Notes under the pieces: generated by a model
Told to the model about the DNA's origin: nothing
Database searches by the model: none
Seen by the model: the letters and a program-made list of their open reading frames with translations, nothing else
Origin: Candidatus Omnitrophota bacterium
GTDB taxonomy: Bacteria > Omnitrophota > Gorgyraeia > 2-01-FULL-45-10
DNA: 64,000 bases
NCBI GenBank assembly: GCA_026387175.1
Contig: JAPLME010000006.1
Location: 172,078 to 236,077, forward strand
Reading direction: 5' to 3'
Part shown: piece after piece, positions 5,111 to 45,386 of the stretch
How positions within the stretch are numbered: the stretch's first letter is position 1
Layout of the letters: each line of letters opens with the position of its first letter
Translations under genes and position numbers: made by a program

Positions 5111-5163
5111 ATATTACTGAAATTATATCATAATAGTATTATATGTCTCAACTATTAATTGGA

Positions 5164-7317: not shown

Positions 7318-7331
7318 AATCAGTCATTATA

Positions 7332-28918: not shown

Positions 28919-28931
28919 CTCTCTGGGTTTC

Positions 28932-30071
28932 CTAATTAGACTTTCTGAATTTATCCTTCAGTCTTTCAATGCGCCGGGATGATTCTACGATCCCCTTCCG
29001 TGGTATCTCTCCACTCTTGACGGCCTTAAGAATTATATCTCTCGCTCTATAAGGAGCCATCTCGTCGTATGCGCTTCCATTGTTGGAGATGATCAATAGG
29101 TCGCACCCCGCGTTAACGGCCCTGATCACGGCTTCCTTGAAACCATAGCGCTCCGTGATCGCGCCCATCTGCATATCGTCCGATACGACGACGCCTTTGA
29201 AACCCAGTTTTTTTCTGAGTATCTCCGTTATATAATGCCCTGAAAGAGTCGCCGGATACTCAGAGTCTATCTTCTTATTTATAATATGGGCCGTCATAAC
29301 CATGTCGACTGCTCCGTCTTTAATAAGTTCTTTATATGGAATAAGCTCTCTGTCCTGATACGTTTCCGAAACATCCACCAATCCTTTATGGCTATCGGCT
29401 TTTGAGCTTCCATGCCCGGGGAAATGCTTGATCGCGGTCATGATCCCGTATTTATGCTGTCCCTCTATAAAGGCCCTGGCTTGCCCGGAAACTATTCTTT
29501 CATCGAATGAAAAAGAGCGCCCTAGCGCCCCGATGACGGGATTCTCAGGGTTTACGTTAACATCAACGACCGGGGCAAAGTTCACATTGAACCCAAGCTC
29601 CGAAAGCTCTCCGGCAAGCGACGTAGACGCTTTCACGGTCTCATTCAAATCATTTTTCTCCCCAAGCTCCCGGGCGCTTGGAACCGTGATAAAACCGTAT
29701 TCTGGTTTCAGGCGATTTACGCGCCCGCCCTCGGCATCGACGGCAACCATCAAAGGCGTCGAAGAGGATTTCTTGAGACCGTTTATAAGCTCTTTTACCT
29801 GAGAGGTGCTAATAATGTTCCTGGGGAAGCTTTTCGTCGGGCCATCGATATCAAACAGGATGACTCCGCCCAGGTTCAGGTTTTTAATAGCCTTTACGAT
29901 ATAAGAATTTTCATTCGCCTCGGTTCCGCGGAAACCGATGATAAGCATCTGCCCTATTCGCACCTTAAGATCTTCGTCTGTATATTTTTTCGTATTAAAA
30001 AAATAAGAGGCGATAAAGATAGATGTTAATAAAGCAATTAAACCGAAAAAATATGAAAACCTTGAATTCAC
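28932..30071 (-). CDS. Beta-N-acetylhexosaminidase, GH3 family (NagZ-like), N-terminally membrane-anchored
   Basis: GH3 motifs (KHFPGHG...D, VVSDDMQM) and an N-terminal hydrophobic anchor. Confidence 0.8.
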   Translation of the reverse strand: MNSRFSYFFGLIALLTSIFIASYFFNTKKYTDEDLKVRIGQMLIIGFRGTEANENSYIVKAIKNLNLGGVILFDIDGPTKSFPRNIISTSQVKELINGLKKSSSTPLMVAVDAEGGRVNRLKPEYGFITVPSARELGEKNDLNETVKASTSLAGELSELGFNVNFAPVVDVNVNPENPVIGALGRSFSFDERIVSGQARAFIEGQHKYGIMTAIKHFPGHGSSKADSHKGLVDVSETYQDRELIPYKELIKDGAVDMVMTAHIINKKIDSEYPATLSGHYITEILRKKLGFKGVVVSDDMQMGAITERYGFKEAVIRAVNAGCDLLIISNNGSAYDEMAPYRARDIILKAVKSGEIPRKGIVESSRRIERLKDKFRKSN

Positions 30072-30104
30072 ATTAAATCCACTTAACCACGTTTTTGCAA
30101 TTTC

Positions 30105-31835: not shown

Positions 31836-32065
31836 TCGGCCTCGACTATAACTTTTGCCGCTATACTATGGCCTAAAGCCAATATGCTCCTGCCCGTCTT
31901 TATCACTACCGGGCCCCTTAAACCGATATGGCTAAGCTTAATCACTTCTCTCCCTTTATACACACCCATATTCATCAGCTTATTTTGCAGGTTTCCGCCT
32001 CCGGATATCTCCACCACCTTACCTCTGTGGTCCGCCTTAAGCGACAGCAAAGACATTTTCTTCAT
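31832..32065 (-). CDS. feoA: FeoA
   Basis: 77 aa with an SH3-like FeoA (GxxVxIxxL) fold. It overlaps feoB by 4 nt. Confidence 0.8.
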   Translation of the reverse strand: MKKMSLLSLKADHRGKVVEISGGGNLQNKLMNMGVYKGREVIKLSHIGLRGPVVIKTGRSILALGHSIAAKVIVEAE

Positions 32066-32075
32066 ATTTTCTCTT

Positions 32076-32465
32076 TTATTTTATCAAAGACTTGATCTTG
32101 GCGAGAAGGACCTTGGCGTCGAACGGTTTCAGTATGTAGTCTTCCGCGCCGATCTCTCCCGAACTTAGCTTAAGGTGCTCTTCTTCCGGATAATGCGCGG
32201 TAAATAAAATGACCGGTATGCTACGGATAGCCTCATCGGCCTTCAACTCCCTGCACACGTCGCAGCCGTTCTTTCCGGGCATCACAACGTCCAGAAGGAT
32301 GATATCCGGCATTTCGGATTTCGCGGTTTCGATGACATACTTTCCGCTGTTAAGCGTTATGACCTCATACCCGCTTGCCTCAAGCCTCGTCTTTACCAGC
32401 TTCAGGAGATCCCCTTCGTCATCTACGACCAGAATCTTCTTCGATCCGGGATTAACGTTATTCAT
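32076..32465 (-). CDS. Single-domain response regulator (CheY-like receiver)
   Basis: DD pair (VVDDE), phospho-acceptor D (LLDVVMPG), T/S and K (LKPF) motifs. No output domain. Confidence 0.85.
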   Translation of the reverse strand: MNNVNPGSKKILVVDDEGDLLKLVKTRLEASGYEVITLNSGKYVIETAKSEMPDIILLDVVMPGKNGCDVCRELKADEAIRSIPVILFTAHYPEEEHLKLSSGEIGAEDYILKPFDAKVLLAKIKSLIK

Positions 32466-32534
32466 TTTACATCCTCCCGTTTTATGTTCTATTATATTAT
32501 ATCCGCTTGTTTCCGTTTTAACAATTGAAACCCT

Positions 32535-33941
32535 TCAGGCTCGCTTGGCCCTCACATATTGATCGGCCGACCGCTTCCTGCGAAAGAAATCCCATGTTCC
32601 GAGAAGCTTCGATATGCTGATGATCCACCTGTACCAGAAGAACTCTACAAATGACAGCGCCACGAGGTACATAATATACCTTATCTTAAAGAGCCTCTGG
32701 CTCTCCACGAAAGCCAATATGCATAAGAGCGACATGAATGCCTGAGAGAGAAGCATAAGTGAAAAGTACGCGAGGAAGACATTGAATTGCAGCACACCCG
32801 CCAGGGCTCCGAATGCCACGAATGCGAAGCTCAATATTTCGATAAATACGCCGAGGACCTCATAGAGCACAAAATAAGGCAGTGTAATAAACGCGAAGAG
32901 GCCGTATTTAGGATTACATACCATATGCCTGTATTTCCAGATCGTCTCGTTGGTCACCCTTTGCCAACGGTTACGCTGTATAATAAGCGAGCGTATATTG
33001 CTGGGCCCTTCGGTCCAGCCCGAGATATACGGCAGCATGACTATCTTATATCCCTTTTCCTTATTTTTTACCGCATATTCGTGAGCACGGAACGTAAACT
33101 CTATGTCTTCGCATGTAAATTCCGCGGAATACCCGCCCAGCTCATATACTATATCCTTGCGCCACACGCCGAAGCCTCCGGACACTATCGGCATCGCGTT
33201 ATATTTACTCCATGCCAGGCGGTTACCTATAAATGAGCGGATATACTCTATGTTCTGATAGGTTATTATCGGGTTATAAGAGAAACTGCGATCCATGATC
33301 ATGCCGTCTTTTATCTTAAAACCGTTCACCAGGCCGAAATAACTTCCAATGCCTATGATCTTGCCCGGCTCCTTATCGACCTGCGCCATCACCTTAAGAA
33401 GCGCGTTCCGCTCGAGTATCGTATCGGCGTCGACGACGCACACATAGTCATATTTTGCCATATTCAGCCCGGCGTTCGCGGCGCCCGCTTTCTTATTGCC
33501 GGGATCCTTGTCTATAACGGTAATGTTCGGATACATTTCACTCTTTAATATTCTACGAACATTCCCGTCTTTGTAGTGCCTTATATACATGGTGTCGATA
33601 GGGCTAAGCTTAAGTAATTCATTAAGTCTCTCCAGAGTCCTGTCCGTCGAACCATCATTCACGACTATTATCTCGAGTTCGGGATAGTTCAGGCTTATGA
33701 GTGATTTTAATGAATCGATTATCCACTCTTCCTCGTTACGGGCAGGCACGATGATAGATACCGGCAATCTCAGGGTGGACAGGTAAAACAGCGGATAATC
33801 TTCGCCTTCGCCCTGGGATTCCCTCCTCATCCCTTCCAGGGATCCTATCAGAGTGAGAAAGAGATAATAAACTGTGAGGAGCAGGAAGTAGCTAAGCGAG
33901 GCTATGAAAACAATATATATAATTTTTGGACCAAGCGTCAT
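32535..33941 (-). CDS. Processive family-2 glycosyltransferase (PgaC/IcaA/NodC/BcsA-like polysaccharide synthase) with N- and C-terminal TM segments
   Basis: VVNDGSTD, KAGAANAGL, VVDADT, CED and QRNRWQR (QxxRW) motifs, plus four or more C-terminal TM helices. Confidence 0.8.
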   Translation of the reverse strand: MTLGPKIIYIVFIASLSYFLLLTVYYLFLTLIGSLEGMRRESQGEGEDYPLFYLSTLRLPVSIIVPARNEEEWIIDSLKSLISLNYPELEIIVVNDGSTDRTLERLNELLKLSPIDTMYIRHYKDGNVRRILKSEMYPNITVIDKDPGNKKAGAANAGLNMAKYDYVCVVDADTILERNALLKVMAQVDKEPGKIIGIGSYFGLVNGFKIKDGMIMDRSFSYNPIITYQNIEYIRSFIGNRLAWSKYNAMPIVSGGFGVWRKDIVYELGGYSAEFTCEDIEFTFRAHEYAVKNKEKGYKIVMLPYISGWTEGPSNIRSLIIQRNRWQRVTNETIWKYRHMVCNPKYGLFAFITLPYFVLYEVLGVFIEILSFAFVAFGALAGVLQFNVFLAYFSLMLLSQAFMSLLCILAFVESQRLFKIRYIMYLVALSFVEFFWYRWIISISKLLGTWDFFRRKRSADQYVRAKRA

Positions 33942-33944
33942 ATG

Positions 33945-35069
33945 CTATAGTCCGTTGTCTATTTTTGCCAAAATTTTCGCCACCTTTGCCCTTACAGACG
34001 GATCGGCATTTTTAGACGCGCTTTCAAGAGCCATGATAGAATATTTTTTTGGTATGTATTCCCCGCCGGCTATGAATTTCTCTATATCAGGAAGAGAGGC
34101 TTTTATATGTTCCGCCATTACATCCTTTACCGCGTCGAGGACCGACCATGACGCGTCGTTTATCAGCTTTATCACTTCCGGCACGGCATCGTCACCGATG
34201 GCTTTCGCCAAACCGAATATAGCGTGTCGTTTTACGAGCCAGCTGTCGTCTTTCAGCCGCTTTCTGAGCGCGACCTTCACGCCCTCTCCTCCTATCCTGC
34301 CCAGGCAATCACAGGCGCCGGCGCGCACCTCGGCAACCTCATCCCCGGTAAGCTTTTCCAGTTTTGCAATATGCTGGCGGGAAGCGAGTTTCGAAAGAAT
34401 AGTGACCCCGCATATCCGGATCCTCGGATCTTTATCATCGGTTAATTTAACAGCCTCATCCGCTATCTCTTTTGGAAAATTGCCGAGTATCGAGGCTATC
34501 TTGTAACCATTGGAAGGCTTCTTCCGCAAAAATCCCAAAAGGGCTTTCGCAGACCTCATCGTCTTTATCTGCGCCAAAGAGATCATAGCGAAATACGCTA
34601 TATCCTCATCACGACTTGAGAGCGACTCACTAAGAACGTCTATTGCCGTTTCTGCCTCCGAATAACCGAGACACAGCATGGCCTCTATCCTGTGCCATTT
34701 ATCATTTGACCTTTCGACGATCTTATTTAATTCGGCGATCTTTTCGGGTTCCCGGAAACAGCCTTTTAACAGCTGCTGTTCGGAGTCATTGAAGAATGCC
34801 GCATCGATGCTCCTATTCGTCTCTATATCTATAAATTGCTGCGGAGTGATGCCGGTAAAAAGCGGGTGACGTACACCCTCGGTAAAGGATTTCCCGGATA
34901 GGACCATTTCGTAGATATCATTCTTTATCTTTAACAACCCCTGGCGGCGTTTTTCCCAGATATAATTTTTAATGACCGCGCAAAAAAATATAACGGCGCT
35001 CGTTAATATGAGAGCGCCGAATAATACCTTATTGATCACCCAGACTATATCGGCATGGTAGTTAAACAT
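33945..35069 (-). CDS. Membrane-anchored HEAT / PBS-lyase repeat protein
   Basis: An N-terminal TM helix, then about 7 HEAT-like repeats (PRIRICGVTIL..., AEVRAGACDCLGRIG, WLVKRHAIFGLA...). Confidence 0.7.
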   Translation of the reverse strand: MFNYHADIVWVINKVLFGALILTSAVIFFCAVIKNYIWEKRRQGLLKIKNDIYEMVLSGKSFTEGVRHPLFTGITPQQFIDIETNRSIDAAFFNDSEQQLLKGCFREPEKIAELNKIVERSNDKWHRIEAMLCLGYSEAETAIDVLSESLSSRDEDIAYFAMISLAQIKTMRSAKALLGFLRKKPSNGYKIASILGNFPKEIADEAVKLTDDKDPRIRICGVTILSKLASRQHIAKLEKLTGDEVAEVRAGACDCLGRIGGEGVKVALRKRLKDDSWLVKRHAIFGLAKAIGDDAVPEVIKLINDASWSVLDAVKDVMAEHIKASLPDIEKFIAGGEYIPKKYSIMALESASKNADPSVRAKVAKILAKIDNGL

Positions 35070-35939
35070 TTAGAATTTGGCCGATGCGGCGAAATTCACG
35101 CTCCGCTTTATGAACTTGGGTTCTTCGGTACCGTAAGAGTAGCCGAATCTTAAATTTATCCCTTTGTATAACTTTATATTTACGCCGGTAAATAATATAT
35201 AACCGAATTCATCGCCGGCATCGAGACCATTTATATCGTAGAGCCTCCCGCCTACAGCCGCTCCGCAGTTCCAGCGCAAAAATTCCGTAATGGCGAAATC
35301 TCCCTTGAATACCCCGATATTAGCCGTATCATGGGCCTCCATATAGCTGGCGCCGTAATTTGCGCTGATGTAGCTGTCTCCGAAATAGTATATAAGGCCG
35401 GGAACCACCAGGTGGGTATCGTCGCCCCTGTAAGCGCGGTAGGTATAACTTATCTGGGCGAACAGGTCCTTATAAATCTTATGGCCGTATTCCGCGATGG
35501 TCTGCCATTGGTATATAAAGTGGCAATCCCATCCATAACCCATCTCAATATGCACGTATTGGTCCGTGAAATTCAGATATGCCCCTACATTCGCTGTCTG
35601 GTCTTTTACGTCAAATCGTTCCAGCTCCGAGAACGACGCGTACCCTGTGATATTTTTATGCGTGTATCCGAAGGTCTGAATGAGCTCGTTCCAGTGGCCG
35701 GTTCTCGTCCCCTGAAGTATATCGCTTGGTTCATAGAAAGCGTCCAGGTACCAACGGTCCTTTTCCGCCGCTTTTTCTTCCATCACGACAAGCGGAGGAG
35801 TGATCTTTTGCACCAATCTATCGATAGATGCCTGTTCAGCGGCACAGGAAAAGACAGGCGTTATTATCAAAAATACCGCCAATGCTATCTTCTTCCTGGA
35901 AAAAATTATTTTAGCGGTGTTTCCCTTTGAATTTTTCAT
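35070..35939 (-). CDS. Outer-membrane beta-barrel protein (YaiO-like), C-terminal Phe
   Basis: Signal peptide, alternating aromatic/Gly-rich strands and a terminal ...ASAKF. It is adjacent to the HEAT protein with no gap. Confidence 0.6.
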   Translation of the reverse strand: MKNSKGNTAKIIFSRKKIALAVFLIITPVFSCAAEQASIDRLVQKITPPLVVMEEKAAEKDRWYLDAFYEPSDILQGTRTGHWNELIQTFGYTHKNITGYASFSELERFDVKDQTANVGAYLNFTDQYVHIEMGYGWDCHFIYQWQTIAEYGHKIYKDLFAQISYTYRAYRGDDTHLVVPGLIYYFGDSYISANYGASYMEAHDTANIGVFKGDFAITEFLRWNCGAAVGGRLYDINGLDAGDEFGYILFTGVNIKLYKGINLRFGYSYGTEEPKFIKRSVNFAASAKF

Positions 35940-36303
35940 ATATTTCTATAGCTGCGGTTATATTCTTTACTTCTCTGCCAAGGTCCTGGGTTTTGACGAT
36001 AAACCCCGAGGCATTGAGCTTACTTGCAGTCTTCACTTTTTCTTCATTAGAAAAAGCCGTGATAATGAATACCGGCAGTTTCGCGTCCTTTGAGCGCACC
36101 TCTTTCAGGACGCTGAGGCCGTCGATCTCCGGCATCATTATATCCAATAGGATGGCATCGGGCTTATCCTTTTCCACCCGCTCGATAGCAGCCTTTCCGT
36201 TATTGGCGGTTATCACCTCGTAACCGTTCGCTTCGAGCCTCATCTGCATCAGCTCGACGAACTCGGCCTCATCATCAACTATCAATATCACTCTCTTTGC
36301 CAT
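35911..36303 (-). CDS. Single-domain response regulator (CheY-like), paralog of the gene at 36919
   Basis: Receiver motifs plus a shared C-terminal LNASGFIVKT motif. Confidence 0.85.
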   Translation of the reverse strand: MAKRVILIVDDEAEFVELMQMRLEANGYEVITANNGKAAIERVEKDKPDAILLDIMMPEIDGLSVLKEVRSKDAKLPVFIITAFSNEEKVKTASKLNASGFIVKTQDLGREVKNITAAIEIYEKFKGKHR

Positions 36304-36322
36304 AATTATAACCTCGCATTTT

Positions 36323-36886
36323 TTATCTGGCTAAAACCCTGTAAATACCGTTAAGCCCGAATAGGATAAATATGGAAGCCGATATCCATTTAACGGACTT
36401 TTCCGGTATATGCTTACGCATCACTATACCGACGATGATCCCTATGGCATCCGCTACGACCATACCGAGAGTAGTCCCCATAAGGACGTTAAACATATTC
36501 CGGTATTCCACAGCCAGGCTTATGGTGGCAAGCTGTGTCTTGTCTCCCATCTCGGCGAGGAAGAACGCGATACCCACTGTCGCCACCGGGCCGAACCGGG
36601 ACTCCTTCTTATTCTTAAGATTGAGTTTATCGCCGTGAAGGGTCCATATCCCGAAAGCTATAAAAGAGAGCGCCGCTATAAAAGAGATAATATCCATCGG
36701 CACTATAGTGGTCAGGAAATGGCCCGTCGCAACCGCAAGCGCATGGTTAAGGATAGTGGCAAGGAAAACCGCTATAAGCACTTTATAAGCGCTGTATCTG
36801 GCCGCGAACGCCATCGCCAAAAGCTGGGTCTTATCCCCCATCTCCGCCAGGACCACAAATATGAACGACGCGATAAACGCCTGCAT
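36323..36886 (-). CDS. UPF0016 / Gdt1 / TMEM165-family cation (Ca2+/Mn2+) transporter
   Basis: Two E-x-G-D-K-T-Q motifs (EMGDKTQ, twice). Confidence 0.8.
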   Translation of the reverse strand: MQAFIASFIFVVLAEMGDKTQLLAMAFAARYSAYKVLIAVFLATILNHALAVATGHFLTTIVPMDIISFIAALSFIAFGIWTLHGDKLNLKNKKESRFGPVATVGIAFFLAEMGDKTQLATISLAVEYRNMFNVLMGTTLGMVVADAIGIIVGIVMRKHIPEKSVKWISASIFILFGLNGIYRVLAR

Positions 36887-36918
36887 TCAGCTCCATTAAA
36901 CTTATGCCGCGTTAAAAC

Positions 36919-37305
36919 CTATCCCTTGAACTTATCCGCAAGCCTTATAGCGCTGGTTATGTTATCGATCTCTTTCTGGAGGTCTTCCGTCTTAGCGATG
37001 AAACCCGAAGCGTTAAGCTTGTTGGCAAGGGCAAAGCGTTTGGCGCTGGAGAATGCCGTAATCATGAATACCGGCAGGTTCTTATCTTTTTTCCTGATAT
37101 CCTTTAGTATATCGAGGCCGTTTATATCGGGCAGCATTATATCTAAAAGGACTGCGTCGATCTTATAGTGTTTGAGCTTCTCCATAGCCTCTTCTCCATT
37201 TACCGCAGTGACGACCTCGTAATTATTCGCTTCCAGCCTGACCCTTATCATCTTTAAAAATTCAAGCTCATCATCCACTACCAGTATGGCCTTCTTCTTA
37301 TCCAT
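36919..37305 (-). CDS. Single-domain response regulator (CheY-like). The start is trimmed to MDKKKAILVVDD.
   Basis: Receiver motifs, and about 60% identity to the receiver at 35911. Confidence 0.8.
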   Translation of the reverse strand: MDKKKAILVVDDELEFLKMIRVRLEANNYEVVTAVNGEEAMEKLKHYKIDAVLLDIMLPDINGLDILKDIRKKDKNLPVFMITAFSSAKRFALANKLNASGFIAKTEDLQKEIDNITSAIRLADKFKG

Positions 37306-38467
37306 GGCAGCCCCTTTCTTGCTTAGCCTTAACATATTTTGGCAACGCAAAGATAACTTCCGTCCCTTTGCCCAGCCTGCTCTCGACCCGTATATTACCG
37401 CCCTGCATATCTACAAATTTTTTCGCTATCAATAGCCCCAGCCCGGTGCCTTTTTCCCTGGTAACGATATTGCCATGCCCAAACTGCTGGAACTTCCCAA
37501 AGATCTTAGGCAGGTTCTCGTCGGCTATGCCGATGCCGCTGTCTGAAACCGAACATTCGAAGCCCTCCTTAAGCTCTTTGGCCGATACTTTTATGAAACC
37601 GTTATTGGTAAATTTGATCGCGTTATCTATAAGGTTGGTCATGACCTGTGTCATCATATCTTTGTCCGCATATATCTTTATTTCGCTTTCCGGCAGGTCC
37701 ATCTTCGCCTCAAGGCCCTTTTCTCTCATCCTGGGCCCAAACGACAATAAAACATTTTTCATCAGGGCCGCGATATCCATCACCTCTTTTTTTATCGCCG
37801 TCTTATCGGATTCTATTTTAGAGAGATCCAGGAGATTATTTAATATCCTCTTAAGCCTTTCTATGCTATCCTTGGCGCTTATCAAAATCTTGGCCTGTTG
37901 ATCGTTTATTTTGCCGGGGATCTCATCCAGGATAATATTTATACCTTCCCTGATGATGGAAAGCGGCGTGCGCAGTTCGTGCGATACCATATCGATGAAG
38001 TCATCCTTAAGCTCGTTGAACTTCTTATACTTGCTTATATCGCGGTAAACGCTCAGAAACATCTCCCGGCCCATATGATGTATCAGCGACGTAGAGATAA
38101 GAAGCGTCTTTACCGTCCCGTCTTTTGCGGTTATGGTCGATTCGGCCTCATATATTCTGCCCTTTTTTGCAACCTCGCCCAGCCTCTCGAAAGCCTTACG
38201 TCTCTCGTCGGCACCCGGATGAAGCAGGCTCAAGAAATCTTTTTGGGCATTGGCCTCCTCCATCTTATACCCTGTGATCTCCTCTATCTTTGAATTGAAT
38301 ATAACAAAATGGCCTTTCGAGTCGCTTAAAGTTATACCTTCATCGATACGTTCGATCACCGTAGAGAGTTCTATTACAGCTTCTTCCAGCCTCTCCTTTA
38401 TATAAGATTTTCTTCCTAGTCGCTCTTCTCCGGCATGATGCTGCCGAGGCTTTCTGGTGTCCGGCAT
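37298..38467 (-). CDS. Soluble PAS sensor histidine kinase
   Basis: PAS domain, HisKA (HELRTPLSII) and HATPase_c (N, G1 DSGIGI, G2 GTGLGL). No TM segment. Confidence 0.85.
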   Translation of the reverse strand: MPDTRKPRQHHAGEERLGRKSYIKERLEEAVIELSTVIERIDEGITLSDSKGHFVIFNSKIEEITGYKMEEANAQKDFLSLLHPGADERRKAFERLGEVAKKGRIYEAESTITAKDGTVKTLLISTSLIHHMGREMFLSVYRDISKYKKFNELKDDFIDMVSHELRTPLSIIREGINIILDEIPGKINDQQAKILISAKDSIERLKRILNNLLDLSKIESDKTAIKKEVMDIAALMKNVLLSFGPRMREKGLEAKMDLPESEIKIYADKDMMTQVMTNLIDNAIKFTNNGFIKVSAKELKEGFECSVSDSGIGIADENLPKIFGKFQQFGHGNIVTREKGTGLGLLIAKKFVDMQGGNIRVESRLGKGTEVIFALPKYVKAKQERGCHG

Positions 38468-38478
38468 TTTTATTACCC

Positions 38479-38862
38479 TTAAGCCTCTTCCTCTTTTAAA
38501 ACGCTCTCTATCTCCGCTATTATATCGAGCGGGTTAGCCGGCTTCTTTATGCATCTCCTGATGCCGCAGAATTTCATGAGCCATACATGTTCTTTCATCG
38601 TATAGTACCCTGTTATCGCTATTACGGGTATCTTGCTCGTCTGAGTAAGGGCCTTAAGGCGGTCGGCGACTTCAAATCCGCTCATAACCGGCATGCGCAA
38701 GTCCATTAATACCAGATTCGGCGATGTGACCTGAGCCGCCTTAATCGCGGCAGAGCCATCGCTTATAGCGGTTACATCATACCCCGCGGTAGTCAACATC
38801 TCGTTTAACTCTTCCAGGTATTCTTTATCATCATCCACGATCAATATTTTCTTCTTAGTCAT
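38479..38862 (-). CDS. Single-domain response regulator (CheY-like)
   Basis: Receiver motifs (IVDDD, LMDLRMP, IAITG, KKP). Confidence 0.85.
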   Translation of the reverse strand: MTKKKILIVDDDKEYLEELNEMLTTAGYDVTAISDGSAAIKAAQVTSPNLVLMDLRMPVMSGFEVADRLKALTQTSKIPVIAITGYYTMKEHVWLMKFCGIRRCIKKPANPLDIIAEIESVLKEEEA

Positions 38863-40420
38863 TTTGTCGCATTCCTCCTTTTTTTTGCTTTTTTTCTACA
38901 ATAGAATGATTTTTTATAAACGGAAGGTAAAGAGTGGCTATTGTCCCTTTGCCCGGCGAGCTTGAGAGATCCATTTTACCGTTATGAAGATTTATTATCT
39001 GTTTACAGACAGGCAGGCCCAAGCCTGTACCGTTGGCTTTCGTGCTATGAAAAGGCTCATAAATATGGCCAAGCACCTCGGGCCTTATCCCGGGGCCGTC
39101 ATCTTTAAATACGATCTTAAGCTGACCGCTTCTATGCGCCGATGCAGATACCGCTATGCCACCCGTCTTATTTTTAAATGACTCGTATGAGTTATTCAAT
39201 ATATTATTGAATACCTCCTGCATCTGTACGGGATCCGCTTTTAGCATCAGATCATGCGGACATTTGAATATTTTGCGTATGGTGACATCATAACCGGGAA
39301 ATATCGACTGCGCGAAATCAATGCATTCATTCAACAGGTCGCACACTTTTACGTTCTCATGTATCGGTGATTTTATGCTCGAATAAATGAGCAAATTCTT
39401 TATTATCTGGTCTGATTCCAGCACCTTTATCTCTATATTGCGGATATTGCTGTTAAGCTGAGGATCCCTGCTCTTCATCCTGATATTATAGGCCGCTATG
39501 CCTATAGCCGCCAGCGGGCTTCGAAGCTCGTGCGCGATAGTGGCGGCGATAGTACCTATATCGGCCAGTCTGCTGGCCCTGTCGAGCCTCTGCTGGGCGA
39601 CTAAAAGTTTTTGACTGCTCATCCTGACCAGGTTCTCAAGCTCCTCCTTATCCCTCTCCAGCACTTCCTCTGCCCGTCTATGGCTGGTCATGTCACGGGA
39701 TATACCCATTACATGCAAAACTTTGCCTTTATTATCGGTCATAGGGCTGAAGCGGGTATCCAGCCAGAACTTACTGCCGTGAAATTCGAATTCGCCAAAA
39801 GCGAAGACCGACTTACCGGTTCTGAAAACTTTTCCTATATCCCTCGTCAGGCGTGACGCTGTTTTGGGCGGAAATAGGCCGGGAAGGTGTTTGCCTATCA
39901 TCTCGCGCGGCTTCTTATTGAAATATGCCGCGCCGAAGGTATTTATATAAGTGATGATTTCCGCTTTATCTACCACGTATATGGGGTCTTCGGCCATCTC
40001 GGTAAGAGCCCTGTAACGCTCTTCGCTTCTGCGCAGCGCCTCATCGATGCGCTTACGCTCCGAAATATCTATGTTGACTTCGGCGACGAGCCATTCACCT
40101 TTCTCATTCTTGAACGGTACCGTCACAACCTCTATCGGCCTGTTACCCTCTTTGACGAGCGCCTCTTCGGTCACAATCTTCTTCTTTGTCTTGAACGCCT
40201 CTCTGACGCCGCACAGCGGACATCTCTTTTTTCGGCCCATGAAGTAAGAGTAACATTTTTTGCCGGTGGGGTCTCCCAACGTCTTCTGCCAGTAGGGGTC
40301 GATATATACTATATTGAGCTTCGAATCGATCACATCGAGGCCTATCCTCGCGGCCCCAAGGACAAGCTCGATCTGCTTCAGCAGGTTTAAGCTATCGATC
40401 TTCAATATATTATTCTTCAT
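38855..40420 (-). CDS. Soluble dual-PAS sensor histidine kinase with an N-terminal Cys-x-x-Cys-containing PAS
   Basis: Two PAS domains, HisKA (HELRSPLAAI) and HATPase_c (DDGPGI, GTGLGL). The first PAS contains CPLCGV. Confidence 0.85.
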   Translation of the reverse strand: MKNNILKIDSLNLLKQIELVLGAARIGLDVIDSKLNIVYIDPYWQKTLGDPTGKKCYSYFMGRKKRCPLCGVREAFKTKKKIVTEEALVKEGNRPIEVVTVPFKNEKGEWLVAEVNIDISERKRIDEALRRSEERYRALTEMAEDPIYVVDKAEIITYINTFGAAYFNKKPREMIGKHLPGLFPPKTASRLTRDIGKVFRTGKSVFAFGEFEFHGSKFWLDTRFSPMTDNKGKVLHVMGISRDMTSHRRAEEVLERDKEELENLVRMSSQKLLVAQQRLDRASRLADIGTIAATIAHELRSPLAAIGIAAYNIRMKSRDPQLNSNIRNIEIKVLESDQIIKNLLIYSSIKSPIHENVKVCDLLNECIDFAQSIFPGYDVTIRKIFKCPHDLMLKADPVQMQEVFNNILNNSYESFKNKTGGIAVSASAHRSGQLKIVFKDDGPGIRPEVLGHIYEPFHSTKANGTGLGLPVCKQIINLHNGKMDLSSSPGKGTIATLYLPFIKNHSIVEKKQKKGGMRQND

Positions 40421-41759
40421 CTGATGCGCCTATCTTGCCGGTGGAAATGGCCGCTATAATGGCCGCGCCGTAACCCGAACCGTCTTTAGTCAACGTAATC
40501 TTTATCTTTCCGGATGAGCGTCCGGACAGCTCCCCGATAACTTCTTTTATCTTCTCGGAGAATCCGGGAAGCTTTTCATATACACTGCCGTCTATAGCGA
40601 TGGTATGTTTCCTTATCACATGCGGATCTATCTTAGTAACTACCGCAACTATTGCCGCGGCGCTGATACGCGCGGCCCTTGTAGAGATAAGCTCGCAGGC
40701 CCTTCTCACGACCTTTAAGTCTTCGAAGGACGGATCTTTAACACCCAATCTTCGCAGCAGAACTTTGGTATCGGCCAAATCGGAAGTTCTGTCTGCCAGA
40801 ACCTGCGACACAAATTCTCCCTTGAGTAACATCTTTTTATTAAACCCGGCCGGGGCCGCGCCTTCAAACAAGATCTTTTTAGATATGAGGCCCTTTATTA
40901 TAAGCCTGCACACTTCACCCAGATACATCCCGGAGACCATCTTCTCCAGCATCTGCGCGCGGGGGTTATCCGATTCTTTATCTAATTGCTCATCATAGCG
41001 CGTTGCTTTCAGTTTATTAAAATTACCCCACTCAATATTGATTATCATGGTGCCCGAATTTCGGCATCCGCCTCCCAGCTTCTTTATCTTATGGAGGGCT
41101 TCGACATAGCAGGCATTTGTGCCCGTTCCTATTATGACGCCGACATCGCAATCTCTGTCACTGTAGCTCCTGGCCACAAGCGTGCCCACAGTGTCGTTGG
41201 TAAGCGCCCTTACCGATATATTGCCGATGCCCTCTTCCTCAAAAGACTTTTTAAGCAGCGCCACGACATCGCGGCCTTCGACTCCGCTTGCGCCGAAACC
41301 TTTGGTCCATGTGACAAGCGTACCACTGTCTATACCGGTCTGCCTAACCGGAAAAGAAAATGTAAATCCAAGATCTATATGCTGTAACGGGCTGATCCTG
41401 TTTTCTTCAATAAATTTTTTAACCGACCTTGCGAGGAACCCGAAGAGTTTTTTCCCAGTGGAGGTTATATCTTTATTTCTAAGCTTAAATTTCATTACAT
41501 GATGGCCGGAGGAAATACCGCGGCCTTTAAGCGTCAAGCTCACGATTCTGAAGTTCGTGCCGCCGAGATCCAGGGCGATGTATTTACCTTTTTCTTTACC
41601 GGTGGGTTTATCGGCGTAAGTGGGGATCATCTTCAGGGAACTGAAGCGCTCTGATAGGCCTTTATCCATTTCGAGATGAAAATCCTTGATCATATCTCTC
41701 ATCTCTTCCCCGGATAACTCAAAATCTTTCTCGAGGATCTTTATCGCGCTTAAGCTCAT
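40410..41759 (-). CDS. Hexokinase-family sugar kinase (eukaryotic-type, PF00349/PF03727)
   Basis: Phosphate-1 motif LDLGGTNFR, sugar-binding motifs, a C-terminal IDGS...GSGYGAAIIAA and an adenosine motif. Confidence 0.75.
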   Translation of the reverse strand: MSLSAIKILEKDFELSGEEMRDMIKDFHLEMDKGLSERFSSLKMIPTYADKPTGKEKGKYIALDLGGTNFRIVSLTLKGRGISSGHHVMKFKLRNKDITSTGKKLFGFLARSVKKFIEENRISPLQHIDLGFTFSFPVRQTGIDSGTLVTWTKGFGASGVEGRDVVALLKKSFEEEGIGNISVRALTNDTVGTLVARSYSDRDCDVGVIIGTGTNACYVEALHKIKKLGGGCRNSGTMIINIEWGNFNKLKATRYDEQLDKESDNPRAQMLEKMVSGMYLGEVCRLIIKGLISKKILFEGAAPAGFNKKMLLKGEFVSQVLADRTSDLADTKVLLRRLGVKDPSFEDLKVVRRACELISTRAARISAAAIVAVVTKIDPHVIRKHTIAIDGSVYEKLPGFSEKIKEVIGELSGRSSGKIKITLTKDGSGYGAAIIAAISTGKIGASDEE

Positions 41760-42229
41760 CTCGATATCTTCGCTACCTTATATTTTAGAGTTCCGGCGGG
41801 CACCTTTATCTCTACTATGTCGCCTTCCTTATGGTCTAATAGGCCGCTGCCTACAGGAGAAGATACCGATATCTTGCCCTGCGAATAGTCCGCCTCTTCT
41901 TCGGCCACCAAGGTATATGTGATCTCACGGCCCGATTTGACATCCACAAGCTTCACGGTAGCTCCTACCAGTATCTGATCGGACGCCATCTGTTCCTCGT
42001 CGATTATCTGGGAGGTCGCCAGCTTGTTTTCAAGTTCCGCGATCCTTTTCTCATTCAGCCCTTGAGCCTCTTTCGCCGCGTCATATTCAGCGTTCTCGCT
42101 GATATCTCCATGGGCTCTCGCTTCGCCGATGGCTTTTGAAAGCGCCCGGCGCTTTACCGTCTTAAGATGCTCCAGCTCTTTGCTTAATTTTTCGTAACCT
42201 GCTTTTGTAAGGTGCGAACCGGATCCCAT
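41756..42229 (-). CDS. greA: Transcription elongation factor GreA
   Basis: 157 aa with a coiled-coil N-terminal domain carrying the acidic tip (DISENAEYD) and a C-terminal FKBP-like domain. Confidence 0.9.
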   Translation of the reverse strand: MGSGSHLTKAGYEKLSKELEHLKTVKRRALSKAIGEARAHGDISENAEYDAAKEAQGLNEKRIAELENKLATSQIIDEEQMASDQILVGATVKLVDVKSGREITYTLVAEEEADYSQGKISVSSPVGSGLLDHKEGDIVEIKVPAGTLKYKVAKISR

Positions 42230-42248
42230 ATCACTCTTCCTCTTCTTA

Positions 42249-42905
42249 TTATGATGAACTTTTCAGAAAATTCGCCATATCGGCGGCAAGCGGCGATTCG
42301 AAAATCATCTTCCTGCCGCTGGCCGGATGAATAAATTCTATGCGTTTAGCGTGCAGCGCCGCCCTCTTGAAGCGCAATTTGTAATCTTTCCTGAACGCGT
42401 ACACCGTCTCGCCCACAAGCGGATGACCTATCGACTTCATATGTATCCGTATCTGGTTGGTCCTTCCCGTAATCGGCTGGGCTTCGATTACTGTGAAAGC
42501 GTTCCGTTTTTCCAGGACCGTATATTTCGTTACAGCGTCTTCGGCCCTGCCCTTATTCCTATTATAGATACAACTTGTTATAGTATCAAACCTTTTTTTC
42601 ACTATGCCGTTAACGAAAGCGATATATACCTTCTTCACGGATCTTTTGCGGAATTCTTCCATCACGGCCTGCTGGATGGCCTTGCCTTTCGCGTAGATGA
42701 TGAGCCCGGAGGTCTCTCTGTCGAGCCTGTGGCACGGATAAGCATTCACCTTAATACCGCGCTCATCCAGTTCTTGATTTATCAGGTCCGTAAGCGTATT
42801 GGTCTCTTTCTTTGGGGTGGGGATTACGAGCATTCCGGAAGGCTTATCGATAACCATTAGCTGGTCATCCTCATAAACTATTCTGTATCGCTTCGCTTGG
42901 GCCAT
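42249..42905 (-). CDS. RluA-family pseudouridine synthase
   Basis: Catalytic motif HRLDRETSGL and an RluA core. Confidence 0.85.
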   Translation of the reverse strand: MAQAKRYRIVYEDDQLMVIDKPSGMLVIPTPKKETNTLTDLINQELDERGIKVNAYPCHRLDRETSGLIIYAKGKAIQQAVMEEFRKRSVKKVYIAFVNGIVKKRFDTITSCIYNRNKGRAEDAVTKYTVLEKRNAFTVIEAQPITGRTNQIRIHMKSIGHPLVGETVYAFRKDYKLRFKRAALHAKRIEFIHPASGRKMIFESPLAADMANFLKSSS

Positions 42906-42996
42906 ATAGCATATATTATACCATATTTATTATCCAATTATAATATGGTGAAAACATCCTTCGCTCCCCAGGAGATTTTTCGGCCAGCTTAGTAGT

Positions 42997-43158
42997 CCCT
43001 TGCGGGGTGGGTGTTGAGCGGGGCGTCGAAAGTCGCGAGCGGGCACGGATTTTTGGCCCTGGTATTCCTGTATGCCAAAAAGAGCGAGCGATCTTTCCGA
43101 GCGAAATTTCCTCGCAGGGGAAATTTTGCGTCCCCGCGATGCACCCACCCCGCAAGGG
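42997..43158. repeat. Intergenic structured element closed by a perfect 17-bp inverted repeat (CCCTTGCGGGGTGGGTG / CACCCACCCCGCAAGGG), extended by GCGGGG/CCCCGC and with internal hairpins
   Basis: Read directly: 42997..43013 is the reverse complement of 43142..43158. Inner palindromic segments are tcgcga and gcgaaatttcctcgc. The element lies in a 290-bp gap between the MFS stop and the rluA-family start. Confidence 0.6.
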
Positions 43159-43194
43159 ACAGACTATGAAGGCCGAAAAACGACAGGACTCGAA

Positions 43195-44361
43195 TTAGAG
43201 TAATATGAGGAATGCAACTGATGAGATGACCGCCATGGCGGCGCCGTAGATGAAGGGCGCGGATGAACCGATATGTGTCCATAGGAGGCCGGCTATGAGG
43301 CTGGCGAAGAACGCGGCAAATCCTGTAATGCAGTAATAGAGCCCTATTGCGGTGCCCATTACCTCTTTGCCGACAACATCTGCTACGAAAGCCTTACTGA
43401 TACCGTCCGTCATGGCTATGTAGAAACCATATATAAAGAATAGCGGCCAGATCGTAACCTTGGTAACGTATGCGCCGAACCCTGTATAGACAAACGCAAA
43501 TATCAGATAACCGGCCACCATCACCGTCTTCCTAGAAAGACGGTCTGAAATGACCCCCGCGGGAAGCGAGAGCGCCGAGTATGAGATATTATAAACCACA
43601 TACGCGAGAATTATAACGCCCGTGGTCAGCCCGATATCTTTGGCGCGCATTATCAGAAAGGCGTCGCTCGAATTTCCTATGGCGAATATGGTAGATATAA
43701 AAATAAATTTCCAGAATGTCGGGGAGAATTTCCTGATATTTATCTTCAAAGGGATACCTTCACCATGCGCTGAATGAGGGCCCTCCTTAAGCCAGAATAT
43801 CAATATGCCCACGCCGGCGAGAGCCGGCACAAGAGCTATCAGAAAAATCGATCTCAGGTCATCTTTGCAAACATAGAGAAGCCAGAACGCGAGCAGGGGG
43901 CCGAGACACGCACCGATGGTATCCATGGCGCGATGAAACCCGAAGACCTTGCCTCTGTATTTGGCTTCGCAGGAGTCCGCTATCATCGCATCTCTCGGCG
44001 AAGTACGAACCCCCTTGCCTATGCGGTCCACTACTCTCGCCAGAAAGATAAAAGGCCATGAATATGCCAAAAAGAACAGTAATTTCCCCAGCGCCGATAG
44101 AGAATATCCCCATATAACAAACGGCTTCCTCTTTTCAAAGAGGTCCGAAATGTAGCCGGAGAACGCTTTCAACACACTTGCCACGGCTTCCGCGGCGCCC
44201 TCGATCAGGCCCAGTATCGACATCGGCGCGCCTAGAACTGAAGTGAGGAATATCGGGATTATCGGATATAACATCTCGCTTGAGATATCTGTGAGCAGGC
44301 TTGTTACGCTGAGGACAACTACATTTTTCTTTATGCCGGTGAAAGCGCGTGCAGGTTTCAT
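43195..44361 (-). CDS. MFS transporter
   Basis: 388 aa with 12 TM helices and MFS loop motifs (DRIGKGVRTSPRDAMIAD). Confidence 0.8.
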   Translation of the reverse strand: MKPARAFTGIKKNVVVLSVTSLLTDISSEMLYPIIPIFLTSVLGAPMSILGLIEGAAEAVASVLKAFSGYISDLFEKRKPFVIWGYSLSALGKLLFFLAYSWPFIFLARVVDRIGKGVRTSPRDAMIADSCEAKYRGKVFGFHRAMDTIGACLGPLLAFWLLYVCKDDLRSIFLIALVPALAGVGILIFWLKEGPHSAHGEGIPLKINIRKFSPTFWKFIFISTIFAIGNSSDAFLIMRAKDIGLTTGVIILAYVVYNISYSALSLPAGVISDRLSRKTVMVAGYLIFAFVYTGFGAYVTKVTIWPLFFIYGFYIAMTDGISKAFVADVVGKEVMGTAIGLYYCITGFAAFFASLIAGLLWTHIGSSAPFIYGAAMAVISSVAFLILL

Positions 44362-45386
44362 TTTATATGTTTGGTCTTGTAAGTATTCACTCTTACGTCA
44401 TATTCGTCTTCTATCTCGCCGATGATCTCCTCTACGAGATCTTCTAGAGTGACTATGCCTTGGACCTTGTCCTGGCTGTCGACTACAATGGCTATATGCG
44501 TATGTCCTTTTTGAAACTCTTTTAAGAGCTCGACGACCTTCTTCGATTCGTTGACGATCGTGGGGGGATATACTATATCCTGAAGAACAACAAGATCCTT
44601 GTTAGACGAGAGCATCAGCAGGTCTTTCATATTGATTATGCCGGATATATTATCCGGGCTGCCGCTGTAGACCGGTATCCTTGAGTAGCCCGACTCGAGG
44701 ACCTTGTTCAATATATCATCGATATTAGAGCTTGCGCTGATCGAAAATATATCTTTCTTCGGCGTCATCACATTCTTGACCACGGCTTCATGAAGAGCAA
44801 AAACTTTCGTGATCATGCTGTACTTCTCTTTTTGCAGGCTTCCCTCTTCCTGGCCTATCTTTATCATAGCCCTTATCTCTTCATCCGTAACCAGGGACGC
44901 CTTAGAAAGCGTTTTAGCTCTTATGGCCTTTAATATAGCATTTATGATCACCTCGAAGCCGATAACAAGCGGTGAGAATATTCTTATCAATAGCCGCATG
45001 GGCCGGGCGAAAAATAGCGACATTCTTTCGGAATAATTAGCCGCTATAGTCTTCGCGGTAACTTCGAATACTATTATAAGAAACGCGACTACGGCCGTAG
45101 AGACCACTATTTCCCATCCGCCCTCACCCATGAAACGTATCACTATGGCGGTCATAAGCACCGCTATCAGTGTACCAACGACACTGCTTGACACCAGAAT
45201 CGTGCTGAAGAAACGTTCCGGGGTCTCCAGTATCTTCAGAATGATCGCGGCGCGTCTTGAGCCTTCCGATGCCAGCCGTCTAAGCCTAAGGCGGCTCATA
45301 GATATTATAGAAATCTCTAATGCGGACGTAACAGCGGTCAGTATAAGCAGAAAAAGTATTATTATACTTTGCAGGAGTGCTTTCAT
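44358..45386 (-). CDS. CNNM/CorB-type protein (DUF21 TM domain plus CBS pair), a putative Mg2+/Co2+ efflux or homeostasis factor. It lacks the CorC C-terminal domain.
   Basis: N-terminal four-TM DUF21 domain followed by a tandem CBS pair. Confidence 0.75.
   Translation of the reverse strand: MKALLQSIIILFLLILTAVTSALEISIISMSRLRLRRLASEGSRRAAIILKILETPERFFSTILVSSSVVGTLIAVLMTAIVIRFMGEGGWEIVVSTAVVAFLIIVFEVTAKTIAANYSERMSLFFARPMRLLIRIFSPLVIGFEVIINAILKAIRAKTLSKASLVTDEEIRAMIKIGQEEGSLQKEKYSMITKVFALHEAVVKNVMTPKKDIFSISASSNIDDILNKVLESGYSRIPVYSGSPDNISGIINMKDLLMLSSNKDLVVLQDIVYPPTIVNESKKVVELLKEFQKGHTHIAIVVDSQDKVQGIVTLEDLVEEIIGEIEDEYDVRVNTYKTKHIK

Follow-up and report, generated by a model that had tools for sequence, protein, structure and literature searches.

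A candidate receiver-led polysaccharide synthase cassette set among housekeeping and two-component genes of an Omnitrophota bacterium

The five synthase-dependent exopolysaccharide (EPS) systems surveyed in PMC7112194, those for cellulose, acetylated cellulose, poly-N-acetylglucosamine (PNAG), alginate, and Pel, are described there as switched by the binding of cyclic di-GMP (c-di-GMP) to the synthase or to one of its partners. In Myxococcus xanthus, the phosphorylated form of the single-domain receiver EpsW contacts the phosphoglycosyl transferase EpsZ directly and thereby activates it (PMC12802240). Here we compare with these systems a stretch of 64,000 nucleotides from a Candidatus Omnitrophota bacterium (assembly GCA_026387175.1, contig JAPLME010000006.1, positions 172,078 to 236,077 of the forward strand), called the window below, in which two histidine kinases (HK1 and HK2) and four stand-alone receivers (RR1 to RR4) lie between a hexokinase gene and feoAB, around a set of polysaccharide genes. 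An earlier reading of the letters of the window (the original prediction) had placed its finding at 36919-41759 and seen there one branched phosphorelay. The genes in that span are real, but it leaves out the interval from RR3 to the glycosyltransferase (32535-36303), which proved to matter most. Compared with other genomes, the array is a mosaic and not one integrated pathway, and its functional unit is, on this comparative evidence, a four-gene cassette made up of RR3, a YaiO-like barrel, a membrane-anchored HEAT protein, and a processive family-2 glycosyltransferase (GT2) of the hyaluronan/cellulose/PNAG-synthase kind. Our overall best explanation, to which we would give a probability of roughly 55%, is a housekeeping backbone that holds a receiver-led synthase cassette fed by HK2, with HK1-RR1 and RR4 standing apart from it. 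Our confidence in the comparative anatomy of the array is high; in the regulatory mechanism of the cassette it is moderate.

The cassette, and the kinase and receiver encoded 5′ of it that we discuss with it, are as follows (positions are those of the window).

37298..38467, minus strand: HK2, a soluble PAS-HisKA-HATPase_c kinase (HisKA E=4.1e-15, HATPase_c E=1.6e-27; H-box HELRTP at 163)
36919..37305, minus strand: RR2, a stand-alone receiver (REC only; a TTG-extended open reading frame [ORF] runs to 37350)
35911..36303, minus strand: RR3, a stand-alone receiver (REC only), first gene of the cassette
35070..35939, minus strand: YaiO-like outer-membrane beta-barrel, presumed export pore (PF19413 E=2.8e-6; N-terminal signal/lipoprotein-like peptide)
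33945..35069, minus strand: single-pass membrane protein with a HEAT/alpha-solenoid domain (PF13646 E=3.9e-29), the constant partner of GT2
32535..33941, minus strand: GT2, a processive family-2 glycosyltransferase (Pfam; D96, D171xD173, T276-C-E-D279, Q322RNRW326)

In general, it is difficult to recognize a transcription unit in this genome from the arrangement of its genes. Of 63 non-overlapping ORFs in the window, 61 are on the minus strand; intergenic gaps have a median of 8.5 nt and do not exceed 35 nt in 45 of 58 cases. Gene arrangement is extremely compact and one-sided, and GC skew is negative over the window (1-64000). Co-orientation and overlaps of 4 to 11 nt are thus the normal state and provide no evidence for an operon. 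A scan for promoter and terminator consensus sites found 40 promoter-like and 24 terminator-like sites, compared to 30.7±5.5 and 19.7±4.9 in shuffled sequence; at approximately chance level, it cannot define operons. Since gene order inside the window is uninformative, the question was settled by comparison with other genomes, and it was this comparative synteny alone that separated the real unit from its neighbours. Our comparison set comprised 160 related loci (cited by L numbers), 80 of them found through hexokinase and 80 through GT2. The latter were returned by a metagenome scan with a GT2 alignment as query, and the 61 with at least 50% GT2 identity are treated here as Omnitrophota-type cassette loci.

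Within these 61 loci, the neighbours of GT2 are the HEAT protein (52 loci), the barrel (38), a stand-alone receiver (28), an SDR-type epimerase/dehydratase (16), and a CofD/YvcK-like protein (8). When only the 34 loci with at least 450 nt 5′ of the barrel are counted, a receiver of 127 to 136 residues lies directly 5′ of the barrel in 25, or in 27 if one locus with a mis-called start (L130) and one with a local rearrangement (L128) are included. These receivers have RR3 or RR2 as their best match, at 50-75% identity, usually with an overlap of 4 or 8 nt into the barrel gene. Close homologues, looked up independently, again gave the order CofD-like protein, REC-epimerase, REC, barrel, HEAT, GT2. 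GT2 itself is unusually well conserved: its best 120 database matches are 58-94% identical, every one with a named organism is from Omnitrophota, and mean column identity is 74%.

In its core logic the array resembles the synthase-dependent systems: judging from its genes, it has a processive synthase at the inner membrane, a dedicated outer-membrane barrel, an extra inner-membrane partner, and a compact layout, and regulation at the level of protein would be expected. GT2 is of the D,D,D,QxxRW type, with D96, D171xD173, TCED276-279, and QRNRW322-326 invariant in 20 homologues and with its hydrophobic segments arranged as one at the N terminus and a block at the C terminus. Its AlphaFold model, with a BcsA/hyaluronan-synthase-like fold, is best matched by Chlorella virus hyaluronan synthase (7sp7, 8snc; TM 0.65-0.67, E about 1e-12 with Foldseek) and then by BcsA and the chitin synthase Chs1; 7sp7 is also the best sequence match in the PDB (phmmer, E=4e-11). 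Like the viral enzyme, GT2 combines a cytosolic GT-A domain with a transmembrane channel of its own. Unlike GT2, the hyaluronan synthase works alone, without a barrel, a HEAT partner, or a receiver, and at 17-19% identity the substrate of GT2 is not inferable from the match. We rejected PgaC/IcaA, the poly-beta-1,6-GlcNAc synthase, as an identity for GT2, which scores 108.5 bits against TIGR03937 (cut-off 422.3); nor did Pfam find PgaA, PgaB, or PgaD homologues adjacent to GT2 in the window.

The barrel is present in 38 loci, has a hydrophobic N-terminal segment, and scores 34.5 bits against TIGR04390 (cut-off 32); the match is a weak one, and the export pore is a presumed role. The HEAT protein starts with a conserved MYNYHxD tail, which is followed by one transmembrane helix. 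Over 42 orthologues, the 15 residues to either side of this helix hold on average 0.24 K/R on the N side and 3.48 on the C side; by the positive-inside rule, the repeat domain is predicted to be cytoplasmic. We had considered the HEAT protein as a periplasmic scaffold of the tetratricopeptide repeat (TPR) kind, and the positive-inside analysis led us to reject this. Its AlphaFold model (pLDDT 89.4) is an all-helical solenoid for which Foldseek returned only generic or designed alphaRep, armadillo, and importin solenoids, without a functional clue.

The array departs from the synthase-dependent systems in three features. A c-di-GMP-binding domain (PilZ, I-site, MshEN) is missing from the cassette, where a stand-alone receiver is the fixed member instead, and Pfam searches of all proteins from hexokinase to RR4 gave no PilZ, GGDEF, or EAL match and no further domain that binds c-di-GMP. 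There is no periplasmic TPR scaffold, the helical-repeat protein being predicted to lie in the cytoplasm. Finally, periplasmic polysaccharide-modifying enzymes are found neither in the window cassette nor among the recurrent neighbours of the 61 cassette loci. The nearest arrangement outside these groups is the yaiS-yaiP-yaiX-yaiO locus of E. coli K-12, in which a YaiO-family barrel is co-oriented with a GT2 (YaiP) and sugar-modifying enzymes. It differs in having neither HEAT protein nor receiver; the two GT2 enzymes share 26% identity over the catalytic domain, the barrels match at the profile level only, and the E. coli locus is uncharacterised and split by IS2. The locus (L165, NC_000913.3 380069-384616) encodes the deacetylase YaiS, the GT2 YaiP, the IS2-split acyltransferase YaiX, and the barrel YaiO, much like a cryptic polysaccharide locus. 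Among the papers listed by a literature search (15 of 65), yaiO appears only as a marker for detection or PCR of E. coli. Searches of the literature for Omnitrophota together with exopolysaccharide gave nothing relevant, and no paper was found that joins synthase-dependent exopolysaccharide, HEAT repeat, and glycosyltransferase.

The position of the receiver invites comparison with EpsW and EpsZ, another single-domain receiver encoded with polysaccharide genes. EpsZ, a large monotopic phosphoglycosyl transferase, initiates a Wzx/Wzy pathway, whereas the receiver described here would have as its partner the processive synthase of a synthase-dependent pathway, or the HEAT subunit of that synthase; Pfam found no phosphoglycosyl transferase, Wzx, or Wzy in the array. 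EpsW is fed by a chemosensory (Dif) system, whereas the cassette receiver is probably fed by a soluble PAS kinase; and the contact made by EpsW was shown experimentally, whereas that of RR3 is deduced from the genes. The receivers of the RR2/RR3 clade keep the acidic pair, D54, T82, and K104 in at least 90% of 35 members, and the most conserved stretch outside the active site is a clade-specific motif over alpha4-beta5-alpha5, ‘TAFSneER..Ank.nAsGFI.KT.Dl..Ei.nit’. The alpha4-beta5-alpha5 face is the one through which receivers usually contact their targets.

HK2 is the likely source of phosphate for RR3, and for RR2 as well. A kinase of the HK2 type lies directly 5′ of the cassette receiver in L016, L098, L103, and L106 and also in L093, at a contig edge; in these five loci, kinase, receiver, barrel, HEAT, and GT2 form one run. 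HK2-like kinases also precede RR2 orthologues in L005, L009, L010, and L021, so that, with adjacency as a proxy for cognate pairing, nine loci place an HK2-type kinase beside a receiver of the RR2/RR3 type. A neighbour-joining tree of stand-alone receivers puts RR2 and RR3, which are 58% identical, in a single clade. Within it, RR3 clusters with receivers linked to the cassette in the loci closest by GT2 (L085-L092), and RR2 with those encoded after an HK2 orthologue at the hexokinase locus (L005, L008-L010, L021). At the alpha1 positions that we take, by Spo0F numbering, to set partner specificity, RR2 has E-F-M-V-R and RR3 E-F-L-M-R (RR1, E-Y-E-E-M; RR4, D-L-L-T-R), and the similarity of the first two is consistent with a single kinase for both. 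The simplest history would start from an ancestral kinase-receiver-cassette array in which the receiver was duplicated, one copy (RR2) staying with the kinase and the other (RR3) with the cassette; in the window, the two copies are separated by the backbone gene GDT1 alone. For RR2, translation most likely begins with the ATG at 37305 (MDKKK...), for which a gap of 2 nt after HK2 is reported.

How might such a cassette work? We imagine that GT2 builds a chain from a nucleotide sugar and passes it through a membrane channel of its own, and that the barrel would carry the polymer across the outer membrane. The PAS domain of HK2 would sense a cytoplasmic cue, and HK2 would phosphorylate RR3 and RR2. 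We infer, from gene order and by analogy with EpsW, that RR3 gates the synthase by protein contact: phosphorylated RR3 would bind the cytoplasmic side of HEAT/GT2 through alpha4-beta5-alpha5 and alter synthase activity, acting as an on/off switch in the position held elsewhere by a c-di-GMP receptor.

Relatives of the cassette carry genes that the window lacks. The SDR epimerase/dehydratase of 16 cassette loci is mostly fused to an N-terminal receiver, and the fusions lie directly 5′ of the cassette receiver (L086:6088-7479, L085:1410-2732, L111:9098-10480, L130:11422-12804, L114:5850-7460, L167:3689-5068). For their SDR domain, the closest match is the human UDP-glucuronate decarboxylase (UXS1, PDB 4lk3; E=4e-52); a literature search on receiver-epimerase fusions gave nothing relevant. 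In eight cassette loci, a CofD/YvcK (UPF0052)-like protein is encoded 5′ of the REC-epimerase (for instance, L086:4781-6091, L115:4701-6026, L167:2368-3696). It is closest to UPF0052/YvcK structures and has about 110 extra N-terminal residues, which are weakly receiver-like in L086 (E=2.3e-5). YvcK/GlmR proteins regulate UDP-sugar flux in Firmicutes. From the fusions of receivers to enzymes, a signal of this kind would seem to gate precursor supply as well, and one can envision that in most relatives such a signal reaches it through the REC-UDP-glucuronate-decarboxylase-like fusion and the YvcK/CofD-like protein. The window cassette has neither gene, and the epimerase-like ORFs elsewhere in the window (703-1665 and 1641-2621) are unfused. 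The L086 cassette also lies beside a phosphofructokinase gene. In most close relatives the cassette is followed by an operon resembling those for membrane-bound hydrogenase or complex I (Proton_antipo_M three times, Oxidored_q6, Complex1_30kDa, NiFeSe_Hases, and NADHdh; L167:9090-17501); RR4-feoAB takes this place in the window.

That leaves the genes around the cassette. On the minus strand, the order by Pfam is CNNM/CBS, MFS, RluA-type pseudouridine synthase, GreA, hexokinase, HK1, RR1, HK2, RR2, GDT1, RR3, barrel, HEAT, GT2, RR4, FeoA, FeoB. Those not listed above are the following.

41756..42229, minus strand: greA, transcript cleavage factor (PF03449 and PF01272), a backbone neighbour outside the signalling unit
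40410..41759, minus strand: hexokinase, eukaryote-like with two domains (PF00349 E=8.5e-64, PF03727 E=2.3e-76), backbone housekeeping
38855..40420, minus strand: HK1, a soluble histidine kinase (three-Cys PAS-like domain at residues 1-125, second PAS, HisKA with H-box HELRSP at 297, HATPase_c)
38479..38862, minus strand: RR1, a stand-alone receiver and partner of HK1 (REC only, PF00072 E=7e-23)
36323..36886, minus strand: GDT1/UPF0016 cation transporter (PF01169 E=3.8e-45), between RR2 and RR3
32076..32465, minus strand: RR4, a stand-alone receiver of a different subfamily (REC only, PF00072 E=2e-25)
31832-32065, minus strand: feoA (translation), 10 nt after RR4
30105-31835, minus strand: feoB (Pfam)

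Much of the original prediction was borne out at the level of single genes. Pfam recovers the hexokinase, the two soluble PAS kinases, and the four single-domain receivers, which at 127 to 143 residues have REC only and, as claimed, no output domain. Hydrophobic segments are absent from both kinases (highest Kyte-Doolittle mean over 19 residues, 1.31 for HK1 and 0.96 for HK2), in agreement with the claim that both lack transmembrane segments; the CPLC noted in the first PAS domain of HK1 is at residues 67-70, and the receivers flanking the UPF0016 gene, called paralogs of about 60% identity, are RR2 and RR3, at the 58% given above. The total of four receivers holds, although they were numbered inconsistently (up to a fourth and a fifth), and the gene order was right except that feoA, after RR4, went unmentioned. 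Overlaps were said to be 4 to 11 nt throughout. This applies to GreA/hexokinase (4 nt), hexokinase/HK1 (11 nt), and HK1/RR1 (8 nt), but several junctions are gaps of 11 to 69 nt (RR1-HK2, 11 nt; RR2-GDT1, 32 nt; GDT1-RR3, 19 nt; GT2-RR4, 69 nt).

HK1 and HK2 both have a HisKA H-box and HATPase_c, the receiver residues are present, and RR1 and RR4 also show the DD...D...T...K pattern. All of these genes lie within 9.7 kb, and a search of the whole window with a profile of the four receivers and of the catalytic core of HK2 found no kinase or receiver ORF beyond HK1, HK2, and RR1-RR4, so that the clustering is real. A multi-step (His-Asp-His-Asp) phosphorelay is a different matter: Pfam shows no REC on either HK1 or HK2, and thus no hybrid kinase, and no Hpt match among 20 proteins scanned from 27691 to 45386.

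The best 80 of 364 genome loci encoding hexokinase relatives were compared with the window by blastp of the window proteins against their ORFs. These relatives are abundant in Omnitrophota and occur in Victivallales, Syntrophales, and other groups. The hexokinase is a convincing one, at 215.5 bits for Hexokinase_1 (Pfam gathering cut-off 24.3) and 256.8 bits for Hexokinase_2 (cut-off 24), with catalytic-core residues invariant across 26 homologues. It is 100% identical to an NCBI protein from ‘Candidatus Omnitrophica bacterium’, and several public assemblies contain identical contigs. The order CNNM-(MFS)-RluA-GreA-hexokinase is kept in about 20 Omnitrophota loci among the 80. What follows hexokinase on its 3′ side varies: HK1-RR1-HK2-RR2-GDT1 in L005, HK1-RR1-HK2-RR2 in L009 and L010, HK1-RR1-GDT1 in L006 and L007, a lone receiver in L008, receiver-GDT1-FeoB in L081, GDT1 alone in L052 and L071, and a kinase and then FeoB and GDT1 in L015 and L031. 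In a fen metagenome-assembled genome (L016), hexokinase is followed by RR1, a kinase fragment, a receiver, the barrel, HEAT, GT2, and another receiver. By this gene order, CNNM-MFS-RluA-GreA-hexokinase, GDT1, and FeoAB are shown to form a conserved housekeeping backbone that holds the signalling and polysaccharide genes, and the two-component genes come as modules, HK1 with RR1 and HK2 with RR2.

Two backbone genes had been candidates for a part in the signalling. GDT1 occurs near hexokinase with or without two-component genes (L005-L007, L015, L031, L052, L071, L081), as FeoB occurs there in L015, L031, L044, and L081, and we rejected GDT1 as a member of the signalling unit. Hexokinase as a functional partner was likewise rejected as unsupported; it is common in the phylum and unlinked to the cassette, which lies beside it in 1 of the 80 hexokinase loci (L016) and in the window, while hexokinase is encoded in none of the 61 cassette loci. 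Most likely it is an ordinary glycolytic gene and just a housekeeping neighbour, though one that may be co-transcribed with the signalling genes. The neighbourhood is rich in metal-ion transporters, all of the backbone: the CorC-like CNNM/CBS protein (44358-45386), GDT1/UPF0016 (36323-36886), and FeoAB (30105-32065). A 97-residue ORF at 42989-43282 (minus strand), which has one hydrophobic segment and no Pfam match and shares 88 nt with the end of the MFS gene, is possibly spurious.

HK1 and RR1 appear, from their distribution, as a separate, self-contained two-component pair with output at the protein level. HK1 orthologues lie between hexokinase and RR1 in L005, L006, L007, L009, L010, and L069; RR1 forms its own clade in the neighbour-joining tree, and its members follow an HK1 orthologue except in L016, where RR1 comes after hexokinase. 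No orthologue of HK1 or RR1 was found in the cassette loci of the metagenome scan. The CPLC of HK1 is part of a C-x10-C-x2-C cluster at residues 56-70, within a domain (residues 1-125; 40046-40420, minus strand) whose family has 2787 representative clusters at E≤1e-3 and 410 at E≤1e-30. Many of its top matches are 58-68% identical within otherwise unrelated architectures, often with 2-6 copies per protein, and among the top 150 proteins the three cysteines are kept in 176 of 198 domain copies. The domain could plausibly bind a metal or an Fe-S centre and may be an undescribed metal or Fe-S sensor module; it has no solved relative, the best PDB sequence match being at E=0.69. The soluble Cys-ligated PAS sensor kinases of the Staphylococcus NreB type have four cysteines (C-x2-C-x11-C-x2-C). 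HK1 resembles them as a soluble histidine kinase with a conserved cysteine cluster in an N-terminal PAS-like domain that could ligate Fe-S or metal, and differs in having three cysteines. The closest HK1 orthologues, in L005 and L006, do not have this domain, and the L007 orthologue has no Cys motif and carries an additional, unrelated PAS domain in its place.

RR4 is probably either a companion of feoAB or a receiver on its own, and its attachment to the cassette is uncertain. The spacer between GT2 and RR4 (32466-32534, 69 nt) has a TTGTTA-17-TATAAT promoter-like site, the only one in the scan that is individually convincing, and a GGGAGG ribosome-binding site. RR4 itself is packed against feoA, with a gap of 10 nt, and may share a transcript with feoAB; a receiver tied to ferrous-iron uptake would be of interest in itself. 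Among the receivers of the cassette loci, none is more than 47% identical to RR4, and the sample contains no close relative of it. L166 (GT2 94% identical) has the same GT2-RR4-FeoA-FeoB order, and in L016 a receiver overlaps the GT2 stop by 4 nt. We considered RR4 as a relic of a REC-epimerase fusion and rejected this: it is 37-39% identical to the REC domains of the fusions in relatives, no closer than to RR3 (43%).

Several observations weigh against the HK2-fed, receiver-led cassette that we favour. The whole account is drawn from the genes of an uncultured organism known from metagenome sequence. The case for HK2 as the cognate kinase is made from five adjacent cases; in the fetched DNA, any kinase is present in 10 of 26 receiver-led cassettes, so the kinase must often be encoded elsewhere. 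RR2 orthologues occur with HK2 and no nearby cassette in L005, L009, L010, and L021, and RR2 may have a different target. The receiver is absent from the most divergent cassettes: an unfused epimerase is directly 5′ of the barrel in L124, L133, and L146, soil loci with 37-40% GT2 identity (L145-L164) have the HEAT-GT2 pair and no receiver, and L137, another divergent locus, also lacks one. Since HEAT-GT2 exists without a receiver, docking of a receiver is not the primary role of HEAT, and the receiver might act on something other than HEAT. The assignment of the barrel to the YaiO family is weak, and the GT2 model is moderately confident (pLDDT 73). Lastly, in six or seven loci HK1-RR1 comes straight after hexokinase; the pair and hexokinase could conceivably be tied in function, which would look the same as shared ancestry or inherited gene order. 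In L137, a Ser/Thr protein kinase of 1019 residues fused to an FGE-sulfatase-like domain is encoded directly 5′ of the barrel (4824-7883), which may be a different regulatory solution for the barrel-HEAT-GT2 machine.

It is possible, in light of these points, that the receivers do not touch the synthase at all. Stand-alone CheY-like receivers are commonly phosphate sinks or connectors, and those described here could be the same, or could control motility, cell division, or a distant transcription factor; alternatively, they could be kept by the barrel for its expression or assembly, or act on the barrel and export. RR2 orthologues away from any cassette, divergent cassettes that manage without a receiver, and the many cassette loci, most of them, without a nearby kinase would all fit. 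We nevertheless consider this unlikely, given a dedicated receiver that is fixed first in the cassette, with a 4-8-nt overlap with the barrel, over loci spanning 58% to 76% GT2 identity. The output face of these receivers is strongly conserved, the receivers fused to nucleotide-sugar enzymes within these cassettes suggest that this very pathway is controlled post-translationally, and EpsW-EpsZ provides a precedent for the contact.

A further alternative concerns the product and is thus compatible with the regulatory model: GT2 may make an envelope or periplasmic glycan, or a glycolipid of the Omnitrophota surface, and the receiver would then tune envelope homeostasis and not a biofilm matrix. 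The conservation of GT2 over the phylum would suit such a core envelope function, as would a cassette with neither periplasmic TPR scaffold nor modifying enzymes. GT2, however, has the motifs of a processive synthase and the channel-forming fold of hyaluronan synthase and BcsA, and its outer-membrane barrel partner, in 38 of 61 loci, argues for export past the outer membrane; we therefore regard an envelope product as doubtful.

We find it very improbable that everything from hexokinase to RR4 is one co-transcribed, branched phosphorelay bringing sugar flux via hexokinase and redox via the Cys-PAS to the synthase. In its favour are the shared direction of the genes and the overlap of several, the concentration of every kinase and receiver of the window in this stretch, the single run of hexokinase, receivers, and cassette in L016, and the carbon-flux proteins beside the cassettes of relatives (YvcK/CofD-like proteins, and the phosphofructokinase of L086). 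Against it, such co-orientation and tight spacing extend throughout the 64 kb, the array has neither Hpt nor hybrid kinase, hexokinase is in 0 of 61 cassette loci and the cassette absent from 79 of 80 hexokinase loci, HK1-RR1 is never with the cassette in the cassette loci of the metagenome scan, the closest HK1 orthologues have no Cys-PAS, and the GT2-RR4 spacer resembles a separate start.

The original prediction was, in part, of this last kind. Its multi-step phosphorelay falls with the missing hybrid kinase and Hpt, and its sugar-flux input through a co-transcribed hexokinase finds no comparative support. Co-orientation, offered as evidence of a module, holds for the whole window, and a scan for the internal promoters or terminators that it named as refuting returns sites at chance level, with the GT2-RR4 spacer alone looking like a separate start. 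Branching survives as a possible one-to-two step from HK2 to RR2 and RR3, not as one integrated array, since HK1-RR1 is a separate pair. The tie of the receivers to the synthase stands for the RR3 type, first in the cassette in 25 to 27 of 34 loci, and not for a whole hexokinase-HK1-RR1-cassette unit. Its suggestion of a protein-protein output onto the synthase was a reasonable inference, with an RR3-type receiver leading the cassette and an HK2-type kinase 5′ of it in five loci.

Returning to the receiver-led cassette fed by HK2, we put forward, tentatively and as a somewhat doubtful extension, that it represents a previously undescribed class of synthase-dependent secretion in which His-Asp signalling replaces c-di-GMP: phosphorylated RR3 would dock on HEAT/GT2, sister REC fusions (UDP-xylose-synthase-like and YvcK/GlmR-like) would gate precursor supply, and the module of the window would have been placed behind a soluble PAS kinase, with its receiver duplicated. 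If this is true, the logic of synthase-dependent secretion can be wired to His-Asp signalling, and the mechanism known from EpsW-EpsZ would be extended to processive synthases. The cassette is conserved across many Omnitrophota lineages, some versions fusing receivers to nucleotide-sugar enzymes, and the finding would name an unusually conserved surface polymer in a phylum of very small, largely uncultured bacteria.

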